This document shows, piece by piece, positions 315 through 62,007 of a DNA stretch of 64,000 bases (its first letter is position 1; every line of letters begins with the position of its first letter). The position numbers and the translations under genes were made by a program. Location of the stretch: the NCBI GenBank assembly GCA_942493285.1, contig OW818691.1, positions 1,234,321 through 1,298,320 of the forward strand, written 5' to 3'. Under the pieces are notes generated by a model, which saw only the letters and a list, made by a program, of their open reading frames with translations, searched no databases and had not been told where the DNA came from. Source of the DNA: an uncultured Myxococcia bacterium. Lineage in GTDB: Bacteria > Myxococcota_A > UBA9042 > PHBI01.

Positions 315-406
315 AACAAGCGTATCGACCTGACACGGCCTAATCGCGATGGGGCCTATCAGCCCCATCGCGATTGATCGGCCGCGCAGGTCATACGCAG
401 GACGTT
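315..406 (+). repeat. attC-like ~92-bp imperfect palindrome, copy 1 (variant: gcgtatcgacctgacacgg left arm)
   Basis: Conserved AAC...GTT element with perfect central hairpin AATCGCGATGGGGC/GCCCCATCGCGATT; same orientation as all other copies. Confidence 0.9.
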
Positions 407-787
407 GTCTGGCCTGTGACTCCTCCGCTTGCCGCACTGCATCAGCTAGCGCCTCTACATCTCACCTGCCGGCGGACCCGCCGCGTCAGTGCTTGCTGGC
501 CCTTATCCGCCTGTGCTCGGGCTCAGGTGCGCCCCTCGCCGCCTCCACGTAAAGCGGCGCCTCGCACGGCCTAACCGCAGCGGGTCGCAGTTTCTCTCCA
601 AGTCACCAACAGCTCTGAGCTGAATCTGTAAACCAAGTGCGCACCAGTGTTTCGCTGCCGCCAACTGACTTTACGGTCCGCACCAGCTGCGCAATCAATA
701 TGGGTTCGAGCGATGCCCGATCTAGGTAGATTGAGCTTCTGCCCTTGGCCCAACTAGTGCAAAGTACGCCATCGGACGGAGGGTAGC

Positions 788-1726
788 ATGAGATTGTCGA
801 TAGTGCTCCTGGTGCATTTGGTGATGTCGAGCGGGTGTGCGAGCGAATCGGCCGATCAAGATGGTCCGTCATTGGAGCAGTTCATCGCCGCGTCTGCCGC
901 TCAAGGTTGCGCCAACATCGTCCGATGCGGCTCCAACAATCCCGACTTTGCCCCGTATCTCGTGGCGATTCGGGAGCGACCGGATTTGTGCGCATCGGAC
1001 TGGGCTGACCTAACTCCCCGTCACCAGTACCAGAGTCGCGTCGCGGAGGGCACAACACGCTACAGCTCGGAAGCGGCAAAGCGATGCCTCCAAGCGCTTG
1101 CCAACGTCTGCAATGAGACCTTCCACGAGGTCCTCGCCTGCGATGCGGTCTTCATGGGAACTGTACCGACGGGAGGTGTCTGTCGTAGTTCAATCGAGTG
1201 CGCCGGAGATGCCTTCTGCGACTTCCGCCAGGATGTTTGCGGTGACGGCACTTGCGCGCAACGTACCGTCTTCGGGGAGTCGTGCGATGGAGGTGAGTGC
1301 ACCCACGCCAGCGGTCCCAGTGCATGCGGCAGCTTCGGTTGCTTGCCGCTCGTGGAAGTGGTCGTTGGCATCAACGATGAGTGCGGCGACATAGATTCGC
1401 CCGAGAGCATTGTCCGCGCATCATGTGGAGATGGTCTCTTCTGCAGTCACCACGGCACTTCGGACGCGACTAGGCGTTGCCTCAAACGCGTTGCGCGTGG
1501 TGAGTTATGCGACGCTGGCCGCGACCTATGTACCGACTTCAGCGACACTTGCGTCCCAGACGCTGACGGTCAGTCGCGATGTTTGCCCGTCACGCTCCAA
1601 TCCCAGATCAATGCTCCATGCGGACAGAATCCCAGTCTCGAGGGGGCGTGCAATTTCCTAATGGGACTCTCCTGCGAGGAAGGGTCGTGCGTGGAATCCG
1701 AGCGTCTACCTGACTGCGCCGACTAG
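788..1726 (+). CDS. Cys-rich secreted lipoprotein (hypothetical)
   Basis: 312-aa ORF; N-terminal hydrophobic signal with lipobox-like LVMSSGC; >30 Cys; first gene after attC copy 1, co-oriented with array. Confidence 0.55.
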   Translation: MRLSIVLLVHLVMSSGCASESADQDGPSLEQFIAASAAQGCANIVRCGSNNPDFAPYLVAIRERPDLCASDWADLTPRHQYQSRVAEGTTRYSSEAAKRCLQALANVCNETFHEVLACDAVFMGTVPTGGVCRSSIECAGDAFCDFRQDVCGDGTCAQRTVFGESCDGGECTHASGPSACGSFGCLPLVEVVVGINDECGDIDSPESIVRASCGDGLFCSHHGTSDATRRCLKRVARGELCDAGRDLCTDFSDTCVPDADGQSRCLPVTLQSQINAPCGQNPSLEGACNFLMGLSCEEGSCVESERLPDCAD

Positions 1727-2030
1727 CTTCTCCACGTTGTGGGCCGGGATCGGGTGCAAGCGTCCCTCTCGACCCACCACATGCCACTGCTCGTCGGACA
1801 GCCGCGGCCTCGCCCGAGACGCTCCTAAGTCATCGCAGACAGAGCGTGAATCGCCCTGCACCGCCTTCGCATCATCCCCTACAGACGCGTGAAGCGGACT
1901 CTCAGTTGGGCCACATGGCGGTTGGGCTGCCCACGGTCACCCTCTGCTCGACGTCTCGAAGGACTCGCTCCTTCCGGAACTGCCCCCGCGGCACAAGTCT
2001 AGGGTTTGACGGACGAAACCGGCTGGGCCA

Positions 2031-2335
2031 CAACTCGATGCGGGGTGTCGAGCTACTCGATGGGTGGTACCGAGCTACTCGATGCGGGGTACCGAGCTAC
2101 TCGATGCGGGGTACCGAGCTACTCGATGCGGGGTACCGAGCTACTCGATGCGGGGTACCGAGCTACTCGATGCGGGGTACCGAGCTACTCGATGCGGGGT
2201 ACCGAGCTACTCGATTGCCGGCACCGAGCCACTCGATTGCCGGTACCGAGCCACTCGATGGGTGGTACCGAGCCACTCGATGGGTGGTACCGAGCCACTC
2301 GATGGGTGGTACCGAGCCACTCGATGCGGGCACCG
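2031..2335. repeat. 22-bp tandem repeat (~14 units, CTCGATGCGGGGTACCGAGCTA)
   Basis: Period 22 counted directly; followed by ~180-bp block homologous to the 3' end of cassette 5. Confidence 0.85.
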
Positions 2336-2516
2336 AAATGGAAAGTCCGCTCGCCACCCACTCGCGACTGGCGCGGTTCGAATGTGAGCGTGTCGGGCGA
2401 GCCGCGCCAACCCAAGCCCGCCAGAACACCTGCTAAACGCACGGCCAAACCACCCGGATTGGACCACCGCGCATCGCATCGTAAGTTGTTGGTTTTACTG
2501 ACGAGCGGGGCCAGAC

Positions 2517-2608
2517 AACAAGCGCATCGAACTGACGCGGCCTAATCGCGATGGGGCCTATCAGCCCCATCGCGATTGATCGGCCGCGCAGCTCATGCGC
2601 AGGACGTT
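2517..2608 (+). repeat. attC-like palindrome, copy 2
   Basis: Full-consensus copy. Confidence 0.9.
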
Positions 2609-6199: not shown

Positions 6200-6291
6200 A
6201 ACAAGCGCATCGAACTGACGCGGCCTAATCGCGATGGGGCCTATCAGCCCCATCGCGATTGATCGGCCGCGCAGCTCATGCGCAGGACGTT
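6200..6291 (+). repeat. attC-like palindrome, copy 3
   Basis: Full-consensus copy. Confidence 0.9.
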
Positions 6292-6367
6292 GTCCCGCCG
6301 AGCCCCTCTCCGCGTCCGCTCGACTCTCTCATCGACCGGTCCCGCTCGTCGCTTTCGCCATTCAAAC

Positions 6368-8218: not shown

Positions 8219-8310
8219 AACAAGCGCATCGAACGGACGCGGCCTAATCGCGATGGGGCCTATCAGCCCCATCGCGATTGATCGGCCGCGCAGCTCATGC
8301 GCAGGACGTT
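8219..8310 (+). repeat. attC-like palindrome, copy 4
   Basis: Full-consensus copy (gaacggacgcgg variant). Confidence 0.9.
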
Positions 8311-10306: not shown

Positions 10307-10398
10307 AACAAGCGCATCGAACTGACGCGGCCTAATCGCGATGGGGCCTATCAGCCCCATCGCGATTGATCGGCCGCGCAGCTCATGCGCAGGACGTT
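10307..10398 (+). repeat. attC-like palindrome, copy 5
   Basis: Full-consensus copy. Confidence 0.9.
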
Positions 10399-11773: not shown

Positions 11774-11775
11774 AG

Positions 11776-13030: not shown

Positions 13031-13122
13031 AACACGCGTATCGACCTGACACGGCCTAATCGCGATGGGGCCTATCAGCCCCATCGCGATTGATCGGCCG
13101 CGCAGGTCATACGCAGGACGTT
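13031..13122 (+). repeat. attC-like palindrome, copy 6 (aacacgcgtatcgacc variant)
   Basis: Conserved hairpin and GTT end. Confidence 0.9.
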
Positions 13123-15517: not shown

Positions 15518-15609
15518 GGCAAGCGCATACAACGGACACGGCCTAATCGCGATGGGGCCTATCAGCCCCATCGCGATTGATCGGCCGCGCCGCTGATGCG
15601 CAGGACGTT
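15518..15609 (+). repeat. attC-like palindrome, copy 7 (divergent left and right arms)
   Basis: aagcgcatacaacggacacgg ... ccgcgccgctgatgcgcaggacGTT; central hairpin intact. Confidence 0.85.
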
Positions 15610-15909: not shown

Positions 15910-17241
15910 ATGCACGTGACGCCCAAAGAGTTTACGATCAAGAAGCTCGTTCAGAGCTTCAACGCAGGCTCACTCCTCCGCAACGATGAATATCAACGCG
16001 GCGAGGTCTGGACACGCTATCAGAAGGCCACGTTTGTCGACTCTGTCTTCCGAGGCTACCCTGTCCCGGCACTGTTCTTTCATCGAGTGGAAAGGCCAGG
16101 GCTCGATGACACTCCGGTTGCATCATATGAAATCATTGACGGACAGCAGCGCCTGACCGCACTCCGCGACTTCAGCGCCGGCAACCTTCAACTGCTCAAG
16201 ACAGAAGGAGAGCCACGTCTCCGACTTCCTAAGGGTGTTCGCTCAATTCCCGCTCCATGGGCAGGCAAGGCGTTCAATGAACTCGACGAGCACCTCCGTG
16301 CGCATTACGAAGATCGCACCGTTACGGTCTTCATCGTGGCACCTGACGCTCACCCTGACGAGATTCGGGATTTGTTCATACGTCTGCAGTCTGGTACCGC
16401 GCTTACTCGACAACAAGTTCGGGATGCCTGGCCGGGAAACGTCGGGCCCTTCATCGAAAAGCTTGCCGGTAAGCTCAAGATCAAACCATCTGTGAAACTC
16501 TTCCAGGTAGTGGACCAACGTGGCCAGGGCAGTGACGATGAGCTCAAGGACAATTACGTCGTCGATAGGCAGACATGCGCACAACTCCTCAAAATCTTCA
16601 CCGCTCGGGCTGCCGACCCATACGCCTTTCCTGCGGTATCAGCCAATCATCTGGATACCATGTATCACGAATACACCGATTTCGATCCGCGGGGAAAACT
16701 CGCCGAACACTTTCGAGAGCTGGTGGAAGGTGCGACTCGAGTCTTCGAGAGAGTTACCACGGAACTGATGGTTCACTCTGCGACCAAGCGGAAGTTCCGA
16801 CGACTCGACGTCACGGTGACCATGATGTACCTCCAGGACGCTTCGCGCGACCCGAATTTCAAGCTGGGCCAGACAACCTTTGCAGCGCTCGCGAAAAACA
16901 TAGCAAATTGTATCGTTACTCCTCCATCGAGGCTCTCGCCCAAGGGCAAGGGTACGTCCTCGTCGGCACTTAAGGACTACTATGCTTGGTGGCGCGATAA
17001 TGTGGCCTGTGGGGCGGGAGTCCGACTCGATGACAAGCGGCTATTTGATGAGCAAGACAAGAGCATCATTCGTGCCCGTGAGATGGGGCTGTGCGCTATT
17101 TGCGAGACAAGCGTAGACCGAGACGACGAGGAGTATGACCACTGGCCCGTACCACACCGGGACGGCGGACCCTCCATCCCCACGAATGGAAGACTCGTTC
17201 ACCGCCGTTGCCATCCACGCGGACGTCCGCTTGAGGATTAG
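15910..17241 (+). CDS. DUF262 (ParB-like) plus C-terminal HNH nuclease, GmrSD-like type IV restriction/defence protein
   Basis: DGQQRLTAL motif of DUF262; C-terminal CAICE...HWPVPHRDGG...HRRCH HNH-like Cys/His motif. Confidence 0.55.
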   Translation: MHVTPKEFTIKKLVQSFNAGSLLRNDEYQRGEVWTRYQKATFVDSVFRGYPVPALFFHRVERPGLDDTPVASYEIIDGQQRLTALRDFSAGNLQLLKTEGEPRLRLPKGVRSIPAPWAGKAFNELDEHLRAHYEDRTVTVFIVAPDAHPDEIRDLFIRLQSGTALTRQQVRDAWPGNVGPFIEKLAGKLKIKPSVKLFQVVDQRGQGSDDELKDNYVVDRQTCAQLLKIFTARAADPYAFPAVSANHLDTMYHEYTDFDPRGKLAEHFRELVEGATRVFERVTTELMVHSATKRKFRRLDVTVTMMYLQDASRDPNFKLGQTTFAALAKNIANCIVTPPSRLSPKGKGTSSSALKDYYAWWRDNVACGAGVRLDDKRLFDEQDKSIIRAREMGLCAICETSVDRDDEEYDHWPVPHRDGGPSIPTNGRLVHRRCHPRGRPLED

Positions 17242-19256: not shown

Positions 19257-19348
19257 AACAAGCGCATCGAACTGACGCGGCCTAATCGCGATGGGGCCTA
19301 TCAGCCCCATCGCGATTGATCGGCCGCGCAGCTCATGCGCAGGACGTT
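19257..19348 (+). repeat. attC-like palindrome, copy 8
   Basis: Full-consensus copy. Confidence 0.9.
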
Positions 19349-25648: not shown

Positions 25649-25740
25649 AACAAGCGCATCGAACTGACGCGGCCTAATCGCGATGGGGCCTATCAGCCCC
25701 ATCGCGATTGATCGGCCGCGCAGCTCATGCGCAGGACGTT
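25649..25740 (+). repeat. attC-like palindrome, copy 9
   Basis: Full-consensus copy. Confidence 0.9.
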
Positions 25741-28246: not shown

Positions 28247-28338
28247 AACAAGCGTATCGACCTGACACGGCCTAATCGCGATGGGGCCTATCAGCCCCAT
28301 CGCGATTGATCGGCCGCGCAGGTCATACGCAGGACGTT
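28247..28338 (+). repeat. attC-like palindrome, copy 10 (gcgtatcgacctgacacgg / caggtcatacg variant, same subtype as copy 1)
   Basis: Left and right arm changes are mutually compensatory. Confidence 0.9.
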
Positions 28339-30628: not shown

Positions 30629-30720
30629 AACAAGCGCATCGAACTGACGCGGCCTAATCGCGATGGGGCCTATCAGCCCCATCGCGATTGATCGGCCGCG
30701 CAGCTCATGCGCAGGACGTT
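30629..30720 (+). repeat. attC-like palindrome, copy 11
   Basis: Full-consensus copy. Confidence 0.9.
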
Positions 30721-34967: not shown

Positions 34968-35059
34968 AACAAGCGCATCGAACTGACGCGGCCTAATCGC
35001 GATGGGGCCTATCAGCCCCATCGCGATTGATCGGCCGCGCAGCTCATGCGCAGGACGTT
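34968..35059 (+). repeat. attC-like palindrome, copy 12
   Basis: Full-consensus copy. Confidence 0.9.
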
Positions 35060-35458: not shown

Positions 35459-36637
35459 ATGCACACGGAACCTACACGGCTCATCTCTCCATCCGTTCAG
35501 GGGGTGATTCGGCAGTTCGCGCCCAGCTACATCGCGAAGAATGGCAAGGGGTTACCCCTGTCGCATCGCAAGGCGCTTCGCCTCCTCTCTCAGTGTCGAA
35601 CGGTCGCGCTTGGCGGTCACGTGGTCGAGTGCGGCAACTGCAAGGTGCAGGACTACACCTACCACTCGTGCGGCCACCGTTCTTGCCCTCGCTGCATGTC
35701 GGAGGACTGTGATGCGTGGCTTGGCGCTCGGCGGAGTGAGCTGTTGCCGGTTCCTTACTTCCACGTGGTGTACACGGTGCCGGAGGGGCTGAACGGCGTG
35801 GTGCGGAGTCATCAAGGGGAGCTGTATCCAGTGCTGATGCAGGCGGCGGGTAACTCGCTTCTGGCAGTTGCGGCCGCGCCTGACAACCTGGGGGGTAGGG
35901 TAGGGGTGATGTCGACGCTGCACACGTCGTCGAGTGCGCTGGCGTACCACCTTCACGTGCACTGCCTTGTCCCCGCGGGGTCGGTCGATGCAGAGGGCGA
36001 GTGGCATGACGCGAAGGACTCGCGCCTGGGGTCAGAGAGCGCGCTTGGCAAGGCTTTCCGGGACAAGGTCGGTTCGATGATGAAGGCCGCAGTCCCGGAC
36101 GTTGCGCTGCCGGACGGGGTGTTCGACCTCGCGTGGAAGGTGCATCTCGAGGTACCGCAGCACGGGGCGGAGACGGTGCTTCGGTATCTGGGTCGCTCGG
36201 TTCACCGCGGCCCGATGAGTGACCACCGCATCGTGTCTGTGACCGAGACCCATGTCGTGTTCAAGTATCGGGACAAGGACCGCACGAAGGCCAAGACGAT
36301 GTGCGTGGACGGCCACGAGTTCCTTCGTCGCTTCCTGCAGCATGTTTGGCCCGACCGGGTGCACAAGGTGCGCTACGCTGGCTTGTGGAGTCGGAAGTGT
36401 CGGGCGGAGCTTCGTGCACTCAGGCAGCGACTCCTGGCAGCCATGCAAGTCGAGCCACCTCCTGCGGTCGGGGAACCGAAACCGCTGCTACCCCCTGAGC
36501 CCGTCCTACCTCCGTGGCGTCGCTGCCCTCACTGCCAGGCGGAGCGGTTCATCGTGGCTCGCTTCAAGGCTGGAACCACCCCACCACCCCTGGTGGACCC
36601 GCTGCAGGGCACACTACCCGGGATAGACCCTCCCTGA
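35459..36637 (+). CDS. IS91-family (HUH Y2 rolling-circle) transposase
   Basis: N-terminal Zn-binding domain (ALGGHVVECGNCKVQDYTYHSCGHRSCPRCM), VPYFHVVYTVP, HUH motif HLHVHCLV, downstream tyrosines (LRYLGRSVH...). Confidence 0.8.
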   Translation: MHTEPTRLISPSVQGVIRQFAPSYIAKNGKGLPLSHRKALRLLSQCRTVALGGHVVECGNCKVQDYTYHSCGHRSCPRCMSEDCDAWLGARRSELLPVPYFHVVYTVPEGLNGVVRSHQGELYPVLMQAAGNSLLAVAAAPDNLGGRVGVMSTLHTSSSALAYHLHVHCLVPAGSVDAEGEWHDAKDSRLGSESALGKAFRDKVGSMMKAAVPDVALPDGVFDLAWKVHLEVPQHGAETVLRYLGRSVHRGPMSDHRIVSVTETHVVFKYRDKDRTKAKTMCVDGHEFLRRFLQHVWPDRVHKVRYAGLWSRKCRAELRALRQRLLAAMQVEPPPAVGEPKPLLPPEPVLPPWRRCPHCQAERFIVARFKAGTTPPPLVDPLQGTLPGIDPP

Positions 36638-37059: not shown

Positions 37060-37151
37060 AACAAGCGCATCGAACTGACGCGGCCTAATCGCGATGGGGC
37101 CTATCAGCCCCATCGCGATTGATCGGCCGCGCAGCTCATGCGCAGGACGTT
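37060..37151 (+). repeat. attC-like palindrome, copy 13
   Basis: Full-consensus copy. Confidence 0.9.
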
Positions 37152-40298: not shown

Positions 40299-40390
40299 AA
40301 CAAGCGCATCGAACTGACGCGGCCTAATCGCGATGGGGCCTATCAGCCCCATCGCGATTGATCGGCCGCGCAGCTCATGCGCAGGACGTT
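40299..40390 (+). repeat. attC-like palindrome, copy 14
   Basis: Full-consensus copy. Confidence 0.9.
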
Positions 40391-42157: not shown

Positions 42158-42249
42158 AACAAGCGCATCGAACTGACGCGGCCTAATCGCGATGGGGCCT
42201 ATCAGCCCCATCGCGATTGATCGGCCGCGCAGCTCATGCGCAGGACGTT
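42158..42249 (+). repeat. attC-like palindrome, copy 15
   Basis: Full-consensus copy. Confidence 0.9.
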
Positions 42250-42357
42250 GTCCGGCGTGCGCACTCAGAACTGGTTGCACTTCAGCGACGCCCCGCGCCT
42301 GGTATCTCCCCACCCCTTCCTTCATCGGCGCTAACCGTCTTCTCGGGAGACGCTCCC

Positions 42358-42712
42358 CTCTGAGGTTGATGGCGTTCTGGAGGTCGCGCAGCGCGACGTT
42401 GACGCCTCGGCTCTGTCGCCGTCGCTCCTTTCTGCGCTTGTCGGCATCTCTCCCTCTGGGGTTGAATGTCGCTCTGGAGGTCCTGCCCGACGTTGACGCC
42501 TCGGTCACCGACGCTCTCGTCCGGCGCTCCTGTCGGCGGACGTTCGTCTCTGGGCTGGATGTCGCTCTTGAGGTCGCGGCGCGTCGTTGTGGTCCTCCTG
42601 GGAGCCTTCCCGACCGCTTGGCGCCTTGCCCTCAGCCCCTTCTGTCCCATCCGTGCGACACTTTGGGACGGTTTGGGACGGTTTGGGACAGCTATGGGAC
42701 AGTTTGGGGTTG
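42358..42712. repeat. ~95-bp degenerate direct repeats (x2.5) followed by 10-bp GGGACRGTTT decamer repeats (x5)
   Basis: Visible repeated blocks TCTGRGGTTGAWTGTCGCTCTKGAGGTC...GACGTTGACGCCTCGG; decamers at 42655-42712; upstream of the diverged IS91-family transposase. Confidence 0.6.
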
Positions 42713-42884
42713 GCTTCACGTAGGCGTGATGCGGTCTTCATGGCTGGCATGGTTTTTGGCAAGAGCTCGGGTCCTCCAACTCAGGGACCTGAACATCTTG
42801 CCGCAATCGAGCCCTTCGACCTCAGCCATCTCCCTGTCTCTTGCTGACGTTCTTCGGCGGTTTGGTGCGAGGTACCGTTCGCGC

Positions 42885-43994
42885 ATGCGTGGGAGTTTGC
42901 CAGAGGAGCATCGGACTGCGATGCGGATGATCGAGAAGTGCCGCACGCCTGCTCTTGGCGGTCATGTTCTGGAGTGCGCGACGTGTGAGGGTGAGCAGGG
43001 GTATGCGTTCAACTCGTGCAATCATCGCTCGTGTCCGAAGTGCATGAGGGAGGCGTCAGCGAAATGGGTTGCAGCTCGGCACGAGGAAGTCCTCCCAGTG
43101 CCGTACTTCCATGTGGTTTTCACGGTGCCGCAGGAGCTGAACGCCATCGTTCGTGACGAGCAGCGGAAGCTCTATCCATTGTTGATGAAGGCGGCCGGGC
43201 AGGCCCTGGTCTCCATCGGGAAGTTGCCTGAGAACCTGGGTGCGACGCCGGCGGTGATGACGTCGCTGCACACGTCTTCGAATACACTCGTGTATCACCT
43301 CCATGTTCACTGTCTGGTTTCGGCTGGCGGTTTGGACGGGGAGGGGAATTGGAAGGCCTCGAAGTCCGAGACACTTGCCCCAACGCGCGCCCTTGGTGCC
43401 AGGTTCCGGTCTCGGGTACTTTCGCTGATGAAGTCAGCGGTGAAGGACCTCAGTGTCCCCGAGGCCGTGCTCAAGAAGGACTGGCAAGTCTACCTCGAGC
43501 TTCCCCACCACGGCACTCCGGCGTTGCTTGAGTACCTCAGTCGTCCGCTTCACTGCGGGCCGTTGTCGGAGTATCGCCTCGAGTCCATGACGGACGAGGA
43601 TGTGGTGTTCCGGTACCAGAAGAGTGGCGACCGGACCTGGCGCACGATGCGGTTGTCTGGACACGAGTTCCTTCGTCGGTTTCTGCAACACGTATGGCCC
43701 AGCGGTGTGCACCGGGTTCACTACTGTGGTCTGTGGCGTCGGAGGTGTCGTGAACAGCTTCGAGCTCTGCGCGCGCTCCTTCTCGGGTCAGCCCCCCCGG
43801 CACCGGCCGCCGCCCCAGTAGCAGCGCGTGCTGACGGGGATGTGCCCTCCGCTGACCTCGAGGTACCCCACTGGCTCAAGTGCCCGCACTGCGCCGGGAC
43901 GCGAGTCGTCGTCGCGCACTTCCGCGCAGGAGCGAAGCTGCCTCCGCTGACGCCACGCGGGTGGGGGGTAATCTCGCCGGAGCCACCGTCGTAG
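42885..43994 (+). CDS. IS91-family transposase, diverged second type (N-terminus may start earlier at a non-ATG codon)
   Basis: ALGGHVLECATCEGEQGYAFNSCNHRSCPKCM, VPYFHVVFTVP, HLHVHCLV; aligns along its length with the 35459-36637 transposase but with different sequence; 600-aa ORF-track call starts inside the attC repeat and is an artefact. Confidence 0.6.
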   Translation: MRGSLPEEHRTAMRMIEKCRTPALGGHVLECATCEGEQGYAFNSCNHRSCPKCMREASAKWVAARHEEVLPVPYFHVVFTVPQELNAIVRDEQRKLYPLLMKAAGQALVSIGKLPENLGATPAVMTSLHTSSNTLVYHLHVHCLVSAGGLDGEGNWKASKSETLAPTRALGARFRSRVLSLMKSAVKDLSVPEAVLKKDWQVYLELPHHGTPALLEYLSRPLHCGPLSEYRLESMTDEDVVFRYQKSGDRTWRTMRLSGHEFLRRFLQHVWPSGVHRVHYCGLWRRRCREQLRALRALLLGSAPPAPAAAPVAARADGDVPSADLEVPHWLKCPHCAGTRVVVAHFRAGAKLPPLTPRGWGVISPEPPS

Positions 43995-44315: not shown

Positions 44316-44407
44316 AACAAGCGCATCGAACTGACGCGGCCTAATCGCGATGGGGCCTATCAGCCCCATCGCGATTGATCGGCCGCGCAGCTCATGCGCA
44401 GGACGTT
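44316..44407 (+). repeat. attC-like palindrome, copy 16
   Basis: Full-consensus copy. Confidence 0.9.
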
Positions 44408-47581: not shown

Positions 47582-47669
47582 AACAAGCGCATCGACCATG
47601 ACACCGCCTAATCGCGGGGGCGATGCGCCCCCGCGATTGATCGGCGGTGCAGGTCATGCGCAGGACGTT
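47582..47669 (+). repeat. attC-like palindrome, copy 17: 88-bp variant with compensatory changes (AATCGCGGGGGCG-atg-CGCCCCCGCGATT)
   Basis: Both hairpin arms changed so pairing is kept; arms gcatcgaccatgacacc / ggcggtgcaggtcatgcg also co-vary. Confidence 0.85.
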
Positions 47670-48068: not shown

Positions 48069-49247
48069 ATGCACACGGAACCTACACGGCTCATCTCTCC
48101 ATCCGTTCAGGGGGTGATTCGGCAGTTCGCGCCCAGCTACATCGCGAAGCATGGCAAGGGGTTACCCCTGTCGCATCGCAAGGCGCTTCGCCTCCTCTCT
48201 CAGTGTCGAACGGTCGCGCTTGGCGGTCACGTGGTCGAGTGCGGCAACTGCAAGGTGCAGGACTACACCTACCATTCTTGCGGCCACCGTTCGTGCCCTC
48301 GCTGCATGTCGGAGGACTGTGATGCGTGGCTTGGCGCTCGCCGGAGTGAGCTGTTGCCGGTTCCTTACTTCCACGTGGTGTACACGGTGCCGGAGGGGCT
48401 GAACGGCGTGGTGCGGAGTCATCAAGGGGAGCTGTATCCAGTGCTGATGCAGGCGGCTGGTAACTCGCTTCTCGCAGTTGCAGCCGCGCCTGAGAACCTG
48501 GGGGGTAGGGTAGGGGTGATGTCGACGCTGCACACGTCGTCGAGTGCGCTGGCGTACCACCTTCACGTGCACTGCCTTGTCCCGGCGGGGTCGGTCGATG
48601 CAGAGGGCGAGTGGCATGACGCGAAGGACTCGCGCCTTGGGTCAGAGAGCGCGCTGGGCAAGGCTTTCCGGGACAAGGTCGGTTCGATGATGAAGGCCGC
48701 AGTCCCCGACGTTGCGCTGCCGGACGGGGTGTTCGACCTCGCGTGGAAGGTGCATCTCGAGGTACCGCAGCACGGGGCGGAGACGGTGCTTCGGTATCTG
48801 GGTCGCTCGGTTCACCGCGGCCCGATGAGTGACCACCGCATCGTGTCTGTGACCGAGACCCATGTCGTGTTCAAGTATCGGGACAAGGACCGCACGAAGG
48901 CCAAGACGATGTGCTTGGACGGCCACGAGTTCCTGCGCCGCTTCCTGCAGCACGTCTGGCCCGACCGGGTGCACAAGGTGCGCTACGCCGGTCTGTGGAG
49001 TCGGGGCTGTCGTCCGCAGCTCCGCGCACTCAGGCAGCGACTCCTGGCAGCCATGCAAGTCGAGCCACCTCCCGCGGTTGGGGAACCGAAACCGCTGCTA
49101 CCCCCTGAGCCCGTCCTACCTCCGTGGCGTCGCTGCCCTCACTGCCAGGCGGAGCGGTTCATCGTGGCTCGCTTCAAGGCGGGAACCACCCCACCACCCC
49201 TGGTGGACCCGCTGCAGGGCACACTACCCGGGATAGACCCTCCCTGA
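48069..49247 (+). CDS. IS91-family transposase (copy 2)
   Basis: 392 aa, few substitutions relative to copy 1. Confidence 0.8.
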   Translation: MHTEPTRLISPSVQGVIRQFAPSYIAKHGKGLPLSHRKALRLLSQCRTVALGGHVVECGNCKVQDYTYHSCGHRSCPRCMSEDCDAWLGARRSELLPVPYFHVVYTVPEGLNGVVRSHQGELYPVLMQAAGNSLLAVAAAPENLGGRVGVMSTLHTSSSALAYHLHVHCLVPAGSVDAEGEWHDAKDSRLGSESALGKAFRDKVGSMMKAAVPDVALPDGVFDLAWKVHLEVPQHGAETVLRYLGRSVHRGPMSDHRIVSVTETHVVFKYRDKDRTKAKTMCLDGHEFLRRFLQHVWPDRVHKVRYAGLWSRGCRPQLRALRQRLLAAMQVEPPPAVGEPKPLLPPEPVLPPWRRCPHCQAERFIVARFKAGTTPPPLVDPLQGTLPGIDPP

Positions 49248-49669: not shown

Positions 49670-49761
49670 AACAAGCGCATCGAACTGACGCGGCCTAATC
49701 GCGATGGGGCCTATCAGCCCCATCGCGATTGATCGGCCGCGCAGCTCATGCGCAGGACGTT
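49670..49761 (+). repeat. attC-like palindrome, copy 18
   Basis: Full-consensus copy. Confidence 0.9.
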
Positions 49762-50137: not shown

Positions 50138-51280
50138 ATGGTGCGGCGAATGTTCATCCATGAGCTCCCGGGCTGGCCGGGTCTGACTTGGGACGCGGGC
50201 GTCTTGGCCAACGCTCTTGGGCGGGTCCGGCACCGACAAGGTCGCCTGCTTGGGCGCATGGAGGCGCTAGGCTTTGACCTTCGCGACGAAGCGAGCGTCA
50301 TGGTCCTCACACGCGACGTGGTTGAGTCATCCGCGATTGAGGGGGAGCATCTCGACGCGACAGATGTGCGTTCCTCCATTGCACGGAGGCTGGGGCTGCC
50401 GCTCGCGGGATTGGCGTCGCCTCCAAGCCAGCGAGTGGAGGGCATCGTCGAGGTGCTGTTGGATGCGACGCAACGCGCGCGCAAAGGCCTGACCCAAGAG
50501 CGCCTATGGGGCTGGCATGCGGCGTTGTTTCCGACGGGCTTCAGTGGAATGCGTCGAATCACGGTAGGCGCTTGGCGGCCGCCTGAGGCAGGGCCAATGC
50601 AGGTAGTGTCCGGTCCAGTGGGACGGGAGCGCCTGCATTTCGAGGCTCCGGCCGCAGAACGACTCGCAACAGAGATGGGAGAGTTCCTTGCGTGGTTCGA
50701 GTCGTCAACGCAAGCTGCTGATGAACTCGATCCAGTGCTCATTGCCGCGATTGCCCACCTTTGGTTCATCACGATTCACCCGTTCGAGGATGGTAATGGC
50801 CGAATAGGGCGGGCTATAGCGGACATGGCGTTGGCACGCGCCGATGGGATTCCGCAGCGGTTCTATAGTCTCTCGTCGCAGCTCATGACAGAGCGCAAGG
50901 ACTACTACCGTGAGCTCGAAGCAGCTCAGCGCGGCAGTCTCGACATCACGGACTGGCTCGCGTGGTTCCTGGGCTGCTTGGACCGCGCCATTGACCGTTC
51001 CGATGATCTCGTGGCGGGTGTCATGAGGCGTGCGAAGATTTGGAGGCGAGCAGAGGAACAACCTGGGGTGAACGCTCGCCAGCGAACAGTCATTGAGCGC
51101 CTCCTGGGGGACTTCAAGGGGCACCTGACATCATCGAAGTATGCGACATTCGCAAAGTGTTCAAGTGACACGGCTCTACGCGATATCGAGAACTTGGTTG
51201 AACGAGGGATCCTTGTCCGCAATCCAAGTGGGGGACGGAGCACGAGCTATCGACTGGCAGAGGCCGAGTTGTTCTCATGA
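50138..51280 (+). CDS. Fic-family protein (AMPylase-type Fic/Doc toxin)
   Basis: Canonical Fic motif HPFEDGNGRIGR; 380 aa with N-terminal extension. Confidence 0.75.
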   Translation: MVRRMFIHELPGWPGLTWDAGVLANALGRVRHRQGRLLGRMEALGFDLRDEASVMVLTRDVVESSAIEGEHLDATDVRSSIARRLGLPLAGLASPPSQRVEGIVEVLLDATQRARKGLTQERLWGWHAALFPTGFSGMRRITVGAWRPPEAGPMQVVSGPVGRERLHFEAPAAERLATEMGEFLAWFESSTQAADELDPVLIAAIAHLWFITIHPFEDGNGRIGRAIADMALARADGIPQRFYSLSSQLMTERKDYYRELEAAQRGSLDITDWLAWFLGCLDRAIDRSDDLVAGVMRRAKIWRRAEEQPGVNARQRTVIERLLGDFKGHLTSSKYATFAKCSSDTALRDIENLVERGILVRNPSGGRSTSYRLAEAELFS

Positions 51281-51454: not shown

Positions 51455-51546
51455 AACAAGCGCATCGAACTGACGCGGCCTAATCGCGATGGGGCCTATC
51501 AGCCCCATCGCGATTGATCGGCCGCGCAGCTCATGCGCAGGACGTT
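51455..51546 (+). repeat. attC-like palindrome, copy 19
   Basis: Full-consensus copy. Confidence 0.9.
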
Positions 51547-51945: not shown

Positions 51946-53124
51946 ATGCACACGGAACCTACACGGCTCATCTCTCCATCCGTTCAGGGGGTGATTCGGC
52001 AGTTCGCGCCCAGCTACATCGCGAAGCATGGCAAGGGGTTACCCCTGTCGCATCGCAAGGCGCTTCGCCTCCTCTCTCAGTGTCGAACGGTCGCGCTTGG
52101 CGGTCACGTGGTCGAGTGCGGCAACTGCAAGGTGCAGGACTACACCTACCATTCTTGCGGCCACCGTTCGTGCCCTCGCTGCATGTCGGAGGACTGTGAT
52201 GCGTGGCTTGGCGCTCGCCGGAGTGAGCTGTTGCCGGTTCCTTACTTCCACGTGGTGTACACGGTGCCGGAGGGGCTGAACGGCGTGGTGCGGAGTCATC
52301 AAGGGGAGCTGTATCCAGTGCTGATGCAGGCGGCTGGTAACTCGCTTCTCGCAGTTGCAGCCGCGCCTGAGAACCGGGGGGGTAGGGTAGGGGTGATGTC
52401 GACGCTGCACACGTCGTCGAGTGCGCTGGCGTACCACCTTCACGTGCACTGCCTTGTCCCGGCGGGGTCGGTCGATGCAGAGGGCGAGTGGCATGACGCG
52501 AAGGACTCGCGCCTTGGGTCAGAGAGCGCGCTGGGCAAGGCTTTCCGGGACAAGGTCGGTTCGATGATGAAGGCCGCAGTCCCCGACGTTGCGCTGCCGG
52601 ACGGGGTGTTCGACCTCGCGTGGAAGGTGCATCTCGAGGTACCGCAGCACGGGGCGGAGACGGTGCTTCGGTATCTGGGTCGCTCGGTTCACCGCGGCCC
52701 GATGAGTGACCACCGCATCGTGTCTGTGACCGAGACCCATGTCGTGTTCAAGTATCGGGACAAGGACCGCACGAAGGCCAAGACGATGTGCTTGGACGGC
52801 CACGAGTTCCTGCGCCGCTTCCTGCAGCACGTCTGGCCCGACCGGGTGCACAAGGTGCGCTACGCCGGTCTGTGGAGTCGGGGCTGTCGTCCGCAGCTCC
52901 GCGCACTCAGGCAGCGACTCCTGGCAGCCATGCAAGTCGAGCCACCTCCCGCGGTTGGGGAACCGAAACCGCTGCTACCCCCTGAGCCCGTCCTACCTCC
53001 GTGGCGTCGCTGCCCTCACTGCCAGGCGGAGCGGTTCATCGTGGCTCGCTTCAAGGCGGGAACCACCCCACCACCCCTGGTGGACCCGCTGCAGGGCACA
53101 CTACCCGGGATAGACCCTCCCTGA
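51946..53124 (+). CDS. IS91-family transposase (copy 3)
   Basis: 392 aa. Confidence 0.8.
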   Translation: MHTEPTRLISPSVQGVIRQFAPSYIAKHGKGLPLSHRKALRLLSQCRTVALGGHVVECGNCKVQDYTYHSCGHRSCPRCMSEDCDAWLGARRSELLPVPYFHVVYTVPEGLNGVVRSHQGELYPVLMQAAGNSLLAVAAAPENRGGRVGVMSTLHTSSSALAYHLHVHCLVPAGSVDAEGEWHDAKDSRLGSESALGKAFRDKVGSMMKAAVPDVALPDGVFDLAWKVHLEVPQHGAETVLRYLGRSVHRGPMSDHRIVSVTETHVVFKYRDKDRTKAKTMCLDGHEFLRRFLQHVWPDRVHKVRYAGLWSRGCRPQLRALRQRLLAAMQVEPPPAVGEPKPLLPPEPVLPPWRRCPHCQAERFIVARFKAGTTPPPLVDPLQGTLPGIDPP

Positions 53125-53546: not shown

Positions 53547-53638
53547 AACAAGCGCATCGAACTGACGCGGCCTAATCGCGATGGGGCCTATCAGCCCCAT
53601 CGCGATTGATCGGCCGCGCAGCTCATGCGCAGGACGTT
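53547..53638 (+). repeat. attC-like palindrome, copy 20
   Basis: Full-consensus copy. Confidence 0.9.
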
Positions 53639-53756
53639 GTCCCGCGAAGCCTGCTCCTTTCACAGCTGGACTGGCCGCGAAGCCTGCTCCTTTCACAGCT
53701 GGACTGTCCGCGACGCCTTCTCCGCTCTCACTTGGAGTCTCTGTCATCCATGCGCG

Positions 53757-54450: not shown

Positions 54451-54490
54451 ATAGCGGCTCGAGCCTGTGGGGCTCGGGTGGTTCGTGATG

Positions 54491-55567: not shown

Positions 55568-55659
55568 AACAAGCGCATCGAACTGACGCGGCCTAATCGC
55601 GATGGGGCCTATCAGCCCCATCGCGATTGATCGGCCGCGCAGCTCATGCGCAGGACGTT
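55568..55659 (+). repeat. attC-like palindrome, copy 21
   Basis: Full-consensus copy. Confidence 0.9.
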
Positions 55660-56058: not shown

Positions 56059-57237
56059 ATGCACACGGAACCTACACGGCTCATCTCTCCATCCGTTCAG
56101 GGGGTGATTCGGCAGTTCGCGCCCAGCTACATCGCGAAGCATGGCAAGGGGTTACCCCTGTCGCATCGCAAGGCGCTTCGCCTCCTCTCTCAGTGTCGAA
56201 CGGTCGCGCTTGGCGGTCACGTGGTCGAGTGCGGCAACTGCAAGGTGCAGGACTACACCTACCATTCTTGCGGCCACCGTTCGTGCCCTCGCTGCATGTC
56301 GGAGGACTGTGATGCGTGGCTTGGCGCTCGCCGGAGTGAGCTGTTGCCGGTTCCTTACTTCCACGTGGTGTACACGGTGCCGGAGGGGCTGAACGGCGTG
56401 GTGCGGAGTCATCAAGGGGAGCTGTATCCAGTGCTGATGCAGGCGGCTGGTAACTCGCTTCTCGCAGTTGCAGCCGCGCCTGAGAACCTGGGGGGTAGGG
56501 TAGGGGTGATGTCGACGCTGCACACGTCGTCGAGTGCGCTGGCGTACCACCTTCACGTGCACTGCCTTGTCCCGGCGGGGTCGGTCGATGCAGAGGGCGA
56601 GTGGCATGACGCGAAGGACTCGCGCCTTGGGTCAGAGAGCGCGCTGGGCAAGGCTTTCCGGGACAAGGTCGGTTCGATGATGAAGGCCGCAGTCCCCGAC
56701 GTTGCGCTGCCGGACGGGGTGTTCGACCTCGCGTGGAAGGTGCATCTCGAGGTACCGCAGCACGGGGCGGAGACGGTGCTTCGGTATCTGGGTCGCTCGG
56801 TTCACCGCGGCCCGATGAGTGACCACCGCATCGTGTCTGTGACCGAGACCCATGTCGTGTTCAAGTATCGGGACAAGGACCGCACGAAGGCCAAGACGAT
56901 GTGCTTGGACGGCCACGAGTTCCTGCGCCGCTTCCTGCAGCACGTCTGGCCCGACCGGGTGCACAAGGTGCGCTACGCCGGTCTGTGGAGTCGGGGCTGT
57001 CGTCCGCAGCTCCGCGCACTCAGGCAGCGACTCCTGGCAGCCATGCAAGTCGAGCCACCTCCCGCGGTTGGGGAACCGAAACCGCTGCTACCCCCTGAGC
57101 CCGTCCTACCTCCGTGGCGTCGCTGCCCTCACTGCCAGGCGGAGCGGTTCATCGTGGCTCGCTTCAAGGCGGGAACCACCCCACCACCCCTGGTGGACCC
57201 GCTGCAGGGCACACTACCCGGGATAGACCCTCCCTGA
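56059..57237 (+). CDS. IS91-family transposase (copy 4)
   Basis: 392 aa. Confidence 0.8.
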   Translation: MHTEPTRLISPSVQGVIRQFAPSYIAKHGKGLPLSHRKALRLLSQCRTVALGGHVVECGNCKVQDYTYHSCGHRSCPRCMSEDCDAWLGARRSELLPVPYFHVVYTVPEGLNGVVRSHQGELYPVLMQAAGNSLLAVAAAPENLGGRVGVMSTLHTSSSALAYHLHVHCLVPAGSVDAEGEWHDAKDSRLGSESALGKAFRDKVGSMMKAAVPDVALPDGVFDLAWKVHLEVPQHGAETVLRYLGRSVHRGPMSDHRIVSVTETHVVFKYRDKDRTKAKTMCLDGHEFLRRFLQHVWPDRVHKVRYAGLWSRGCRPQLRALRQRLLAAMQVEPPPAVGEPKPLLPPEPVLPPWRRCPHCQAERFIVARFKAGTTPPPLVDPLQGTLPGIDPP

Positions 57238-57659: not shown

Positions 57660-57751
57660 AACAAGCGCATCGAACTGACGCGGCCTAATCGCGATGGGGC
57701 CTATCAGCCCCATCGCGATTGATCGGCCGCGCAGCTCATGCGCAGGACGTT
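57660..57751 (+). repeat. attC-like palindrome, copy 22
   Basis: Full-consensus copy. Confidence 0.9.
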
Positions 57752-57799
57752 GTCCCGCCGAGCCCTGTTCCGCGTCCGCTCGTCTTGTTCATCTACCGG

Positions 57800-58448
57800 C
57801 TCAACTGGCCTCACATTTGTACAGCCCCAGCTGGACTCGCAGGTGTAACGCCTCGGCTGGACTCGCAGGTGTACCGCTTCGGCTGGACTCGCAGGTGTAC
57901 CGCCTCGGCTGGACTCGCCAGTTGTACTGCCCCGGCTGGCCTCGCCAGTTGTACTGCCCCGGCTGGATTCGCAGTTCTACCGTCTCGGCTGGACTCGCAT
58001 TTGTACCGCTTCGGCAGTTGTAGCGCCTCGGCAGTTGTAGCGCCTCGGCAGTTGTACTGCCTCGGCTGGACTCGCAGTTGTACCGCGTCGGCTGGACTCG
58101 CAGTTGTACCGCGTCGGCTGGACTCGCAGTTGTACCGCGTCGGCTGGACTCGCAGTTGTACCGCGTCGGCTGGACTCGCAGTTGTACCGCGTCGGCTGGA
58201 CTCGCAGTTGTACCGCGTCGGCTGGACTCGCAGTTGTACCGCGTCGGCTGGACTCGCAGTTGTACCGCGTCGGCTGGACTCACAGTTGTACCGCGTCGGC
58301 TGGACTCGCAGTTGTACCGCGTCGGCTGGACTCGTAGTTGTACCGCGTCGGCTGGACTCGCAGTTGTACCGCCTCGGCAGTTGTACCGCGTCGGCTGACT
58401 CGCAGCTGTACAGCCCCGGCTGGACTCGCAGTTGTACAGCCCCGGCTC
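57800..58448. repeat. 26-bp tandem repeat (GGCTGGACTCGCAGTTGTACCGCGTC, ~25 units, central units near-identical)
   Basis: Period 26 counted; largest minisatellite in the window; begins ~50 bp after attC. Confidence 0.9.
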
Positions 58449-59637: not shown

Positions 59638-60028
59638 AGATTCCCACAGTATCGGAGGTTGGACTATGCGCCTTGAGAATCCCTCATGGCGCTTGAGCCG
59701 ATGGCCGTGTCTCGACGACGGCGGCAATTTCGCACTCACTTGGTATGGCTTGGCCTTCGCGACCATGGCATTCTTCACCTATCCTTCGACCGCCCTCCGC
59801 TGGCTGGTCAACCGTGGTGGCTCCCTCACGCCCAACGCAAGCCATCGCAGCCCCGAGCGGAACACCTGCAAGTCATCGTACTGACCGCTCGAAAGCACGA
59901 CGTAGCGCACGCGAACGGATGGCACCACGCACGCCAAATGCCCACCGCCATCGACCGATTCGAGTCCGAGACCTACGCGTGACGCCTCCCTCATCGCGCC
60001 ACTGCGGGCTAGCGCGGCCCGGCGGGAC

Positions 60029-60120
60029 AACAAGCGCATCGAACTGACGCGGCCTAATCGCGATGGGGCCTATCAGCCCCATCGCGATTGATCGGCCGCG
60101 CAGCTCATGCGCAGGACGTT
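60029..60120 (+). repeat. attC-like palindrome, copy 23
   Basis: Full-consensus copy. Confidence 0.9.
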
Positions 60121-60596
60121 GTCGGGCGTGTGCAGCCAAGAGGTCCACGTTCGCAGAGGCCGCCCCCTACAGCGGTCAAAACTCCCCCGACGCCGCGACT
60201 TCCACAACCCCGCAACCGACGCCGCGGAGACGCTCCTCCATCCCGCGCCTCTGCTCGGGCCGCTACTTGCTCCGACCTCCCACCTGGTCGCGGCTCATCT
60301 CCTGTTGTCGGGCGTCCACAGCAGGACTGGTCACCACGCAGGACGGCTTCGCCCCGTGGAGTCGAGACCCGGCCCGCCTTCCAGTATGGGCCTGGCGGCC
60401 ACACGCTGGAAGGCCTCAAGCCTCGGCCAGCTCAAACACGTTGGCTTCATATCCAGGCTCAAACGGACACCAACGATTTCCAAATCAGCACGGCCACAAT
60501 CATCCAACGCTTCTCAGCTCAAGCCCTTCTTGCTCCTCTCTACGAATTCGCTCGCGGTTGTTCCCGAATGCGGTCCAGCGCATCGTCACACATCTC

Positions 60597-61919
60597 CTAG
60601 TTTGGTTCGGCATCACCGCTCGGGTCGGCGGCTCCCTCTGTGTCTCGGAAGCTGCCAATGTCCGACTCAACGCAATAGGCGATTAGGCCCGCGGAAAAGT
60701 TGAGCGTCTGGCATGCTGAGCGAGCATCTCGCATGAATGTCGTTTGATTGATCGCAAGCGGGTCGAGATCCGAGCTCAGGTACCCCGTGAACTCCGCTGC
60801 GGTGGCTGCGTCCTGATGCGCGAAGCTGGAAAGAAACGCGTATAGGTCCTTGTGTACATTTCGGAGCGGGGAAAGTTTGCAACGGTCCCCTATCGACCTT
60901 GCAAGGTTGAACTCCTTCTTCATGCCATCAATGGCCGCCTTCGCAGCTGCCTGCGACCATCCCTTCGACAACCAACCTCGGCGGATCTCGTCGAACACTC
61001 CAGTTTGACTTCGATCTCCAAGCTGAGCGGCGTGAGTTAGTATCGGCCCCATTGTCTCGGGAGCTAGCCAGTCGAGGTAGAACATGGTCGCGAGTTCATA
61101 TAGGCTTCGCGCAATTACCAACATCGTTTCGCCTCTCCCTCGTTCCACGAGCAGGTGCAATGCATCGATCGCCCGTATAGCGCGAACCAAAGTCGACGCG
61201 ACGACGTAGTGGTAATGCGTTTCTGCCTCCTCTGCGTGGACCTTCCTCAACCTCTCGAGAAGTCGCTCTAGGCGAATGCGGTTCGTTTCTAGGATCTCGC
61301 CAGCTGTCGTGCCGGGACGCGTAAGCTGGAGTTCGGAATCGAGTTGGAGCTCGGACGGACGAGTAGAATCGAGGTGAAAACGCTGAGTCTCAGGATCATC
61401 AATTCCGACAAGCACCAGTTCGGCATGGTGATGGTGTTTGGGCTCACCAAGGATGGCCGCCGGAACCTGAGTCGTTCCGAACCTTCGATATGCCTCGAGG
61501 ACTGCAGTATCGTCCGGACAAGCGTACCGAAAGGCAACATCCGTCCTTTCCAATTCGTATAGGTATAGTGGGGGACGTGTTCCGCGCGCCAATGACTGCA
61601 GAACGATCTGAACCAGTTCCTCCGTCACGGGCGGATCCACAACCAAGACAGGAGGCGACGTTTCGGGCCGAAGGAACCCCATCATGACTTCGCCGATTGG
61701 AACTCGTGTTTTCACCAACTTCAGTTGGCCGCGCACCGCGTTGATATAGGCCTTGAGAAAGTACGGATCAGATTCATATTGATCCGTTTCTATGGTTGCA
61801 GGGTCGACTAACACGTATTCCTGCTGTCGACGCAGTCGAGCCAAGGGGACCCCGTCCTTCGAAGGCCGTGTATTGGATCCTTCTTTGTGATAGCTGACCG
61901 GCATCAGCTTCTTGGCCAT
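60597..61919 (-). CDS. Hypothetical protein (441 aa)
   Basis: Start at Met (ATGGCC at 61914-61919 on minus) just inside the degenerate attC remnant; the longer ORF-track call runs through the remnant. Confidence 0.45.
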   Translation of the reverse strand: MAKKLMPVSYHKEGSNTRPSKDGVPLARLRRQQEYVLVDPATIETDQYESDPYFLKAYINAVRGQLKLVKTRVPIGEVMMGFLRPETSPPVLVVDPPVTEELVQIVLQSLARGTRPPLYLYELERTDVAFRYACPDDTAVLEAYRRFGTTQVPAAILGEPKHHHHAELVLVGIDDPETQRFHLDSTRPSELQLDSELQLTRPGTTAGEILETNRIRLERLLERLRKVHAEEAETHYHYVVASTLVRAIRAIDALHLLVERGRGETMLVIARSLYELATMFYLDWLAPETMGPILTHAAQLGDRSQTGVFDEIRRGWLSKGWSQAAAKAAIDGMKKEFNLARSIGDRCKLSPLRNVHKDLYAFLSSFAHQDAATAAEFTGYLSSDLDPLAINQTTFMRDARSACQTLNFSAGLIAYCVESDIGSFRDTEGAADPSGDAEPN

Positions 61920-61959
61920 CTCTCCACTCCACTCGGTTCGGGTTCGACTCAGGCGAGTT

Positions 61960-62007
61960 TGGACCGACTGACGAATTGCGTCAACCTCCGCTGATGCGCA
62001 GGACGTT
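61960..62007 (+). repeat. Degenerate/truncated attC-like remnant (right arm ...gctgatgcgcaggacGTT only)
   Basis: Right arm and GTT retained; downstream 100 bp homologous to 5' leaders of the cassettes starting at 44408 and 60121. Confidence 0.6.

Follow-up and report, generated by a model that had tools for sequence, protein, structure and literature searches.

Sedentary chromosomal integrons, such as the Vibrio cholerae superintegron with its V. cholerae repeats (VCRs) and those of Xanthomonas and Pseudomonas, hold long arrays of co-oriented, homogeneous and lineage-specific attC sites, between which lie cassettes of ~0.5-1 kb with mostly unknown, toxin-antitoxin and phage-defence genes, some of them duplicated. 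Clusters of attC sites that lack an integron integrase (CALIN) are defined by two or more attC sites without such an enzyme nearby, and most of them have fewer than six sites (Cury 2016, PMC4889954). Here we describe a stretch of 64 kb (the window) from the chromosome of an uncultured Myxococcia bacterium (contig OW818691.1, positions 1,234,321 to 1,298,320), in which a 92-bp palindromic repeat occurs 23 times in a single orientation. Our favoured reading, with a probability of about 0.85, is that the window belongs to a large chromosomal array of integron-type cassettes and that an IntI integrase encoded outside it recombines the sites.

The locus shares with sedentary integrons the kind of array and cargo just described, duplicated cassettes included. 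It differs from them in that no IntI, attI or Pc promoter was seen in the window, the cassettes measure 1.7-6.3 kb and often hold several genes, the R boxes are not of the GTTRRRY type and form stems of 8-12 bp, 17 of the 23 attC sites are 100% identical over 92 bp, and five of the 22 complete cassettes carry IS91-type transposases. Within its 64 kb the locus would fall under the definition of a CALIN, with 23 sites where most CALIN have fewer than six. As an integron-type array, the locus adds to the known integrons a large and very homogeneous attC family that combines canonical IntI geometry with non-canonical cores and big cassettes.

A co-oriented family of repeats

A BLAST search of the window with the 92-bp consensus returned 22 full copies, together with a diverged copy of 88 bp (47582-47669) and a 14-bp remnant of a right end (61994-62007). 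The family thus comprises 23 copies of an imperfect palindrome of the form AAC...GTT, all on the + strand, plus one remnant (Table 1). A covariance model of the family found exactly 23 copies on the + strand, with scores of 93-114 bits, and on the - strand weak mirror images alone (26-42 bits). The start-to-start spacing of the repeats is 1785-6392 bp, with a median of ~2.3 kb. Searched for on both strands of the window, the inner stem AATCGCGATGGGGC gave 44 matches, 22 per strand, where 0.76 would be expected by chance. AAC begins 22 of the 23 copies and GTT closes all of them; the conserved stretch runs from AAC to GTT, and the sequence outside both ends is specific to each cassette.

A first-pass annotation of this DNA, made from the sequence alone, had reported a ~92-bp element in 23 copies and a remnant, always in the same orientation and 1.8-6.4 kb apart, and this description was confirmed. 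The arm sequences that it quoted and its perfect inner stem, of 14 bp, were correct, as were the outer AAC/GTT cores with conservation ending after GTT.

The sites are clustered, with 20 of the 22 gaps shorter than 4 kb and the remaining two at 4.3 and 6.4 kb. Because IntegronFinder by default groups attC sites separated by under 4 kb, this setting would split the array at the two large gaps, and the array should help to calibrate the 4-kb clustering rule as well as attC detectors. The decayed seventh site and the remnant at 61994-62007 suggest past events of cassette fusion or deletion. An Rfam scan of the window gave no family match. The exact pattern of the attC arms had three single matches in GTDB representative genomes, all in Actinobacteria and rated as chance, and viral contigs yielded neither an attC match nor a relative of the transposases.

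The bottom-strand hairpin

As single-stranded DNA, the repeat's bottom strand folds into a hairpin of -45.5 kcal/mol (z = -7.6). Its outermost part is an R-box helix, ACAAC/GTTGT plus flanks, followed by an unpaired spacer of 5/2 nt, a 6-bp helix, a bulged G, a second 6-bp helix with a G-T wobble (an A-C mismatch on the top strand) and a bulged T; innermost lie a 7-bp helix, a small internal loop and a perfect terminal stem of 14 bp. Both bulges, the G and the T, stand 6 nt apart on the R''-L'' arm and are retained in divergent variants. Previously described attC sites have an unpaired central spacer, a terminal structure that varies, two or three extrahelical bases on the R''-L'' arm, namely a G and, at a distance of 6-8 nt, a T, and, on the bottom strand, usually a G following AAC (Bouvier 2009, PMC2727003). 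All of these features are present in the 92-bp repeat. The attC architecture proposed in the first-pass annotation was recovered in the bottom-strand fold, which shows R and L boxes, a spacer that is unpaired and, on the arm where they belong, two extrahelical bases.

The attC sites of class 1 integrons (aadA2, aacA4, qacG2 and others) show the same succession of AAC, ~8 nt, an extrahelical C, 6 nt and an extrahelical A as the top strand of the window repeat, the C and A being G and T on the bottom strand in both; the spacing of AAC, 8 nt, bulge, 6 nt and bulge is exactly that of the aadA2 and aacA4 sites. The L-box motif CAT-C-GA / TC-ATG is also common to the window repeat and the aacA4 site. 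In contrast to class 1 sites, the window repeat has a different unpaired spacer (2/5 nt), a much longer L stem and the perfect 14-bp terminal helix, and the flanks of its R boxes resemble GGGAC/GTCCC and not YYYR/RRRY.

We scanned metagenome contigs with the two outer boxes, leaving the middle free, and obtained 17 contigs. In their sites the outer boxes and the bulges are constant, and the middle varies in both sequence and length (79-94 nt). Across 13 distinct sequences, 96.7% of the cells were paired; shuffles reached 86%, and controls with slid partners 39% at most. Compensatory changes were present at 13 base pairs, a number reached by 0 of 500 shuffles.

We also built a surrogate covariance model solely from 13 attC sites of annotated class 1 integrons on plasmids. 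In a search space of 128 kb (both strands) the model gave 25 matches at E<=10, of which 21 were repeats (21 of the 23 copies), all of them full-length and on the + strand, with R'', both bulges and R' aligned in register. As a set these matches are supportive of the attC identity of the repeats, as a surrogate that is no substitute for the IntegronFinder attC model. The same model matched sites beside transposase genes on the metagenome contigs L021, L022 and L024, at E = 3e-4 to 0.017.

Cassette boundaries

The flank that follows GTT at one site pairs with the flank that precedes AAC at the next site, over a mean of 6.7 contiguous bp. The corresponding means were 3.0 bp for pairing with the site's own other flank and 2.6 bp for pairing with other sites, and none of 100,000 permutations reached the observed value. 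The partner from the same cassette paired better at 13 sites, equally well at nine and worse at none. Two sites scored zero, the decayed copy at 15518 and the copy at 47582; the latter zero comes from a coordinate offset of 1 nt, and from the correct start 8 nt pair by eye. Such pairing across cassettes is expected if the segments between repeats moved as circles cut inside the R' core, and the same signature was found in unrelated arrays on contigs L021, L031 and L048. Whole-cassette duplicates in the window likewise have boundaries that fall within attC sites. These patterns place the cassette boundary inside the R' core, the precise phosphodiester bond (G|TT) being beyond the resolution of sequence comparison.

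On contig L031, the outer flanks of the two attC sites around a transposase cassette (1542-1625 and 3641-3724) pair with each other, as expected if the cassette entered a pre-existing single attC.

A probable integron-type array and its putative integrase

We take the repeats to be attC sites because five independent tests agree: the fold, the covariation, the pairing of flanks across cassettes, the surrogate model and the cargo. The array resembles an integron cassette array in nearly every feature that could be tested, and it is a known kind of system. Under this reading, each 92-bp repeat would be an attC whose bottom strand, when single-stranded, folds into the hairpin that integron integrases read by shape. 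Recombination at or next to GTT would excise or insert a circle made of one inter-repeat segment and one attC, and the array would be a stockpile of 1.7-6.3 kb cassettes whose content ranges from defence systems and toxin-related genes to unknown genes and repeats that are non-coding. The enzyme would be an IntI encoded upstream of position 1 or elsewhere in the chromosome.

Several observations weigh against this reading. Taken singly, the copies score marginally with the surrogate model, at 8-17.5 bits and a best E of 0.039. The core sites do not follow RYYYAAC/GTTRRRY: the flanks are GGGACAAC/GTTGTCCC, CAGCCAAC/GTTGGCTG and similar, the R' and R'' boxes read, for example, GTTGTCC and GTTGGCT, and the AAC/GTT triplets alone fit; the first-pass annotation, too, had noted that the consensus departs from a textbook GTTRRRY. 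The cassettes are far above the usual size and two of them exceed 4 kb, whereas the largest known cassettes are of ~2 kb according to a study that uses a clustering threshold of 4 kb (Cury 2016, PMC4889954). Many of the cassettes have several genes, on both strands, and are loosely packed. Textbook cassettes are much smaller and more compact, and on this point the first-pass annotation needs correcting. Five cassettes encode an IS91-type protein, co-oriented with the repeats and filling the whole unit, which makes this protein a second candidate for the enzyme, taken up below. Finally, neither the window nor the 17 metagenome contigs with the same attC family showed an integron integrase, attI or Pc promoter.

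With an IntI1 query that was 100% identical to annotated IntI1, tblastn against the window gave E>=0.99 at best, and a Pfam scan of the open reading frames (ORFs) of the window revealed no tyrosine recombinase, in agreement with the first-pass annotation, which had seen neither intI nor attI there. The same tblastn query was negative against all loci with the window's attC family, and a Pfam scan of 67 ORFs from these loci was negative for recombinases. The recombinase beside the array on L021 was considered as an IntI and rejected: at 280 aa it has no IntI-specific insertion, and its scores stay under the cut-offs of the model. With the attC top strands on the + strand, the place to expect an intI would be upstream of base 1; the array extends past the window's left edge. 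The cassette copies that are 99.95-100% identical suggest recent recombination, and thus an active enzyme that may be encoded somewhere in the genome. "Chromosomal integron or CALIN" is the proper level of claim for this window, and it is the level that the first-pass annotation had chosen.

IS91-type transposase cassettes

The five transposase genes encode IS91-family HUH proteins, each gene filling a whole attC-bounded unit. Four of these cassettes measure exactly 2000 bp between attC sites and are 97.35-100% identical end to end, and the 99.95-100% identity of three of them indicates a recent amplification; their neighbours differ, so that the duplicated unit is the cassette itself. The fifth gene is diverged, and its ORF as listed begins inside attC 15, the conserved part starting at ~42819. 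The proteins match the Pfam domains Y2_Tnp and Zn_Tnp_IS91 and the NCBIfam model transpos_IS91 (318-321 bits). They have an HxHVH motif and a tyrosine motif, YLGRS or YLSRP, with the first tyrosine only. The HUH motif and the first tyrosine are kept in the window proteins and in most of their ~35 closest homologues (P0001-P0037), and they are constant across homologues that are 50-59% identical. This clade of the family has lost the second catalytic tyrosine of IS91, with Ser, Pro or Phe at its position in the window proteins and most of these homologues (YLGRS/YLSRP compared with YLGRY).

Within 320-610 bp on each side of the transposase genes we found neither oriIS- or terIS-like motifs nor terminal hairpins. 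An interpretation of these units as normal IS91 elements with ends of their own was rejected for this reason; their boundaries coincide with attC sites. The first-pass annotation had listed insertion sequence (IS) insertions among the cargo, which is right for one IS5-like gene (see below) and wrong for the five IS91-type genes, as these make up whole attC-bounded cassettes. The attC belonging to each transposase cassette is of the consensus type in five of five cases, which has a chance probability of 0.18 and is not significant. Cluster records indicate at least six sequence variants of one transposase and at least three of the other on the source chromosome. Most homologues sit on contigs of ~2 kb, the length to be expected of a repeated cassette with repeats at both ends. 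Full-text literature searches retrieved no description of IS91-type transposases as integron cassettes.

Relatives of these proteins occur in two forms. In the first, the transposase stands alone between co-oriented attC sites, as on contigs L021-L024. One identical protein (P0005) is present on 19 metagenome contigs, and in the eight that we inspected (L030-L037) it is attC-bounded and has differing neighbours. A single transposase flanked by related attC sites was also found on L048, from another metagenome, and L038, where the attC match is marginal, probably carries a further one. In the second form, seen in more distant relatives, a 280-287 aa Xer/IntI-like recombinase is followed in the same operon by a two-tyrosine IS91 transposase. 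These two-gene elements have small terminal hairpins (left CTAAACCGCnnnGCGGTAGG, right TTTTGTGTCG..CGACACAAAA), and the surrogate model detected no attC near them. Against the integron-integrase model, their recombinase matches in the N-terminal and C-terminal parts and lacks the IntI-specific insertion.

A run of iteron-like TTGGGAC(A/G) motifs, spaced ~10-11 bp apart, lies 100-200 bp upstream of the single-tyrosine genes in the divergent cassettes examined (both window types, L031 and L038), and a similar TGTCCC pair lies upstream of the transposase gene on L048 (~295-320). The TTGGGAC(A/G) iterons are absent from the two-gene elements examined. Such a run could be an array of binding sites for the transposase or for a regulator.

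The cassettes can be compared with other mobile elements that are linked to integrons. They share with IS91/ISCR elements, including the ISCR1 of complex class 1 integrons, the match to the IS91 transposase model and the physical link to an integron. ISCR transposases, too, keep a single catalytic tyrosine. ISCR1, however, lies outside the cassette array and has an oriIS of its own, whereas the window gene is itself a cassette that lies between intact attC sites and shows neither an oriIS nor a terIS that could be recognised. Mobile-element genes tied to integron arrays are also found in IS1111-attC elements and group IIC-attC introns, which target attC sites; these split an attC on insertion, whereas the transposase units of the window have an intact attC on either side and behave as normal cassettes.

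Our preferred reading of the five transposase cassettes is that they are selfish cargo, moved and amplified in the form of cassettes. The recurrent attC-bounded cassette with a single-tyrosine IS91-type protein is, in our opinion, the more interesting point of this locus. An unlikely but more far-reaching idea is that these proteins are working partners of the integron, copying by rolling circle from each attC to the following one or with read-through into adjacent DNA. The single-stranded circles made by the transposase would then carry an attC and serve as IntI substrates, which could amplify cassettes and give rise to new ones. Such a partnership would explain the 17 identical attC sites, the long multi-gene cassettes and the four copies of the transposase cassette, the only one so multiplied. 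If IS91-type proteins do act on attC hairpins, rolling-circle transposition would be linked to the amplification or genesis of cassettes, and a true partnership would give a testable answer to the unsolved questions of how cassettes originate and why attC sites are homogeneous in sedentary integrons.

Other explanations of the array

We consider it very unlikely that IS91-type HUH transposases build and move the array without IntI, with the hairpins acting as rolling-circle origin and terminator. The unit between two hairpins would then be copied as a single-stranded circle and re-inserted at another hairpin. The number, orientation and whole-unit extent of the transposase cassettes speak for this explanation, as do the 99.95-100% identity of three of the copies, the preservation of the HUH motif and first tyrosine in homologues only 50-59% identical, the lack of ends of their own, and the attC-bounded relatives in four other metagenome contig sets. 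CAAG and GAAC, which are target tetranucleotides of IS91, are moreover present in the left arm directly downstream of each transposase cassette. On the other hand, the hairpin has all the shape features that IntI reads, which an unrelated HUH system would have no reason to share, and there are contigs with the same attC family and no such transposase. Nicking by HUH enzymes normally takes place in loops or next to hairpins, whereas the boundary here is inside a stem, and the two-gene relatives use ordinary small terminal hairpins and no attC.

It is highly improbable that the sites are attC-like and recombined by a non-canonical tyrosine recombinase, the candidate being the 280-287 aa Xer/IntI-like enzyme. 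Relatives of the transposase share an operon with this recombinase, which matches both ends of the integron-integrase model; a recombinase of this type lies 330 bp from the last attC of the four-attC array on L021, and canonical IntI was not found on any contig with these sites. The L021 recombinase, however, is convergent with the cassettes and adjoins an IS21 fragment, so that it may belong to another element, and there is no attC near the two-gene elements. The extrahelical bases, which are contacted by the IntI-specific insertion, are also conserved here.

Locally dense intergenic palindromes that do not delimit mobile units, like repetitive extragenic palindromic (REP) sequences, bacterial interspersed mosaic elements (BIME) or miniature inverted-repeat transposable elements (MITE), would be GC-rich, imperfect and situated between genes, as the repeats are, and might lack an Rfam match; yet the single orientation of all 23 copies with its strong strand asymmetry and the pairing of flanks across cassettes and not across repeats appear to exclude this reading, and whole inter-repeat units are duplicated with boundaries within repeats, a scan of 40 ORFs revealed no gene of the REP-associated tyrosine transposase (RAYT) type, and neither terminal inverted repeats nor target-site duplications were observed.

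Cargo and other features of the window

Cargo was assigned with Pfam and PADLOC. A complete two-gene Pycsar system is contained in one attC-bounded cassette, and the other assigned defence-related and toxin-related genes are given in Table 1. The IS5-like gene inside cassette 11 looks like the sole ordinary IS insertion in the array. Further cargo includes a PADLOC Hp2-family protein, a DUF6119 protein, a zeta-toxin/AAA_33-like protein, two M78/HTH proteins and, on the - strand, a DUF3368 protein, a Pfam domain of unknown function that we take to be PIN-like. A KAS III gene sits in the 6.3-kb multi-gene cassette. Many ORFs have no family match. The recognisable genes are mostly on the + strand, with six exceptions. 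On metagenome contigs that share this attC family, the cargo includes restriction-modification, Dnd and Mrr genes.

Table 1. Position of the attC sites, cassette genes and repeats in the window, and of related features on metagenome contigs
Feature	Position	Strand	Remarks
attC 1	315..406	+	variant type GCGTAT.../...ATACGC; family model 108.9 bits; surrogate attC model E=0.039
attC 2	2517..2608	+	consensus; family model 113.9 bits; bottom-strand fold -45.5 kcal/mol, z -7.6
attC 3	6200..6291	+	consensus; family model
attC 4	8219..8310	+	1 mismatch; family model
attC 5	10307..10398	+	consensus; family model
attC 6	13031..13122	+	variant type; family model
attC 7	15518..15609	+	decayed, GGC for AAC; upstream flank unpaired with previous cassette start
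attC 8	19257..19348	+	consensus; family model
attC 9	25649..25740	+	consensus; family model
attC 10	28247..28338	+	variant type; family model
attC 11	30629..30720	+	consensus; family model
attC 12	34968..35059	+	consensus; family model
attC 13	37060..37151	+	consensus; family model
attC 14	40299..40390	+	consensus; family model
attC 15	42158..42249	+	consensus; family model
attC 16	44316..44407	+	consensus; family model
attC 17	47582..47669	+	diverged 88-nt copy, compensatory changes in both stems; 93.1 bits
attC 18	49670..49761	+	consensus; family model
attC 19	51455..51546	+	consensus; family model
attC 20	53547..53638	+	consensus; family model
attC 21	55568..55659	+	consensus; family model
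attC 22	57660..57751	+	consensus; family model
attC 23	60029..60120	+	consensus; family model
attC remnant	61994..62007	+	last 14 nt ATGCGCAGGACGTT; next cassette start 84% identical to cassette 16 start
IS91-family transposase (392 aa), copy 1	35459..36637, cassette 35060-37059	+	97.35% identical to other three
IS91-family transposase, copy 2	48069..49247, cassette 47670-49669	+	100% identical to copy 4 over 2000 bp
IS91-family transposase, copy 3	51946..53124, cassette 51547-53546	+	99.95%
IS91-family transposase, copy 4	56059..57237, cassette 55660-57659	+	cassette-wide identity
Fifth, diverged IS91-family transposase	42192..43994, cassette 42250-44315	+	48% aa identity
Pycsar system, complete, single cassette	PycTIR effector 10853-11773, PycC cyclase 11728-12468	+	Pfam; PADLOC E=1e-96 to 1e-106
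Protein with GmrSD N-terminal restriction-endonuclease domain	15910..17241	+	NsnA-like in PADLOC; Pfam, PADLOC
OLD/GajA/AriA-like AAA ATPase	26128..27984	+	Pfam, PADLOC
Fic/DOC	50138..51280	+	DUF4172+Fic; Pfam
IS5-like DDE transposase, inside cassette 11	31469..32554	-	DUF772 + DDE_Tnp_1; Pfam
Iteron-like runs	35319-35366, 42643-42701; L031 ~1800-1840; L038 ~3300-3360		
Two-gene elements	L025 2151-5548, L026 8531-10499, L027 481-2444, L028, L029		
Tandem repeats	2654-2840, 6367-6615, 40452-40655, 53743-53963, 54003-54448, 57794-58447		
Further tandem repeats	2033-2330, 12721-12848, 41031-41615		
Leader families	406, 10398; 2608, 6291, 57751; 13122, 15609, 25740; 28338, 40390, 53638; 44407, 60120, 62007		by preceding attC end, families separated by semicolons

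Along the + strand, 25 of the 32 2-kb windows have a negative GC skew, and the cumulative skew is -1.14. If the skew reflects replication, the attC bottom strands would lie on the lagging-strand template, an orientation that is in the minority and is found in small arrays only (Loot 2017, PMC5371416). Alternatively, the negative skew may reflect a foreign composition of the cassettes.

In several cassettes the first 200-800 bp after the attC are occupied by non-coding tandem repeats, with periods of 26-27 bp and a common core TGGACTC, and these leave cassettes 14 and 20 largely ORF-less. Cassettes 1 and 5 have 22-bp repeats at their 3' ends, and there is one 170-bp repeat with 3.4 copies. We considered the 26-bp tandem repeats as reiterated R' ends of attC and rejected the idea, as the alignment scores were no better than those of shuffles. 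Cassettes that are otherwise unrelated share leaders: over their first 40-240 bp they group into a few families with 75-85% identity, and the same families are also found on the metagenome contigs.

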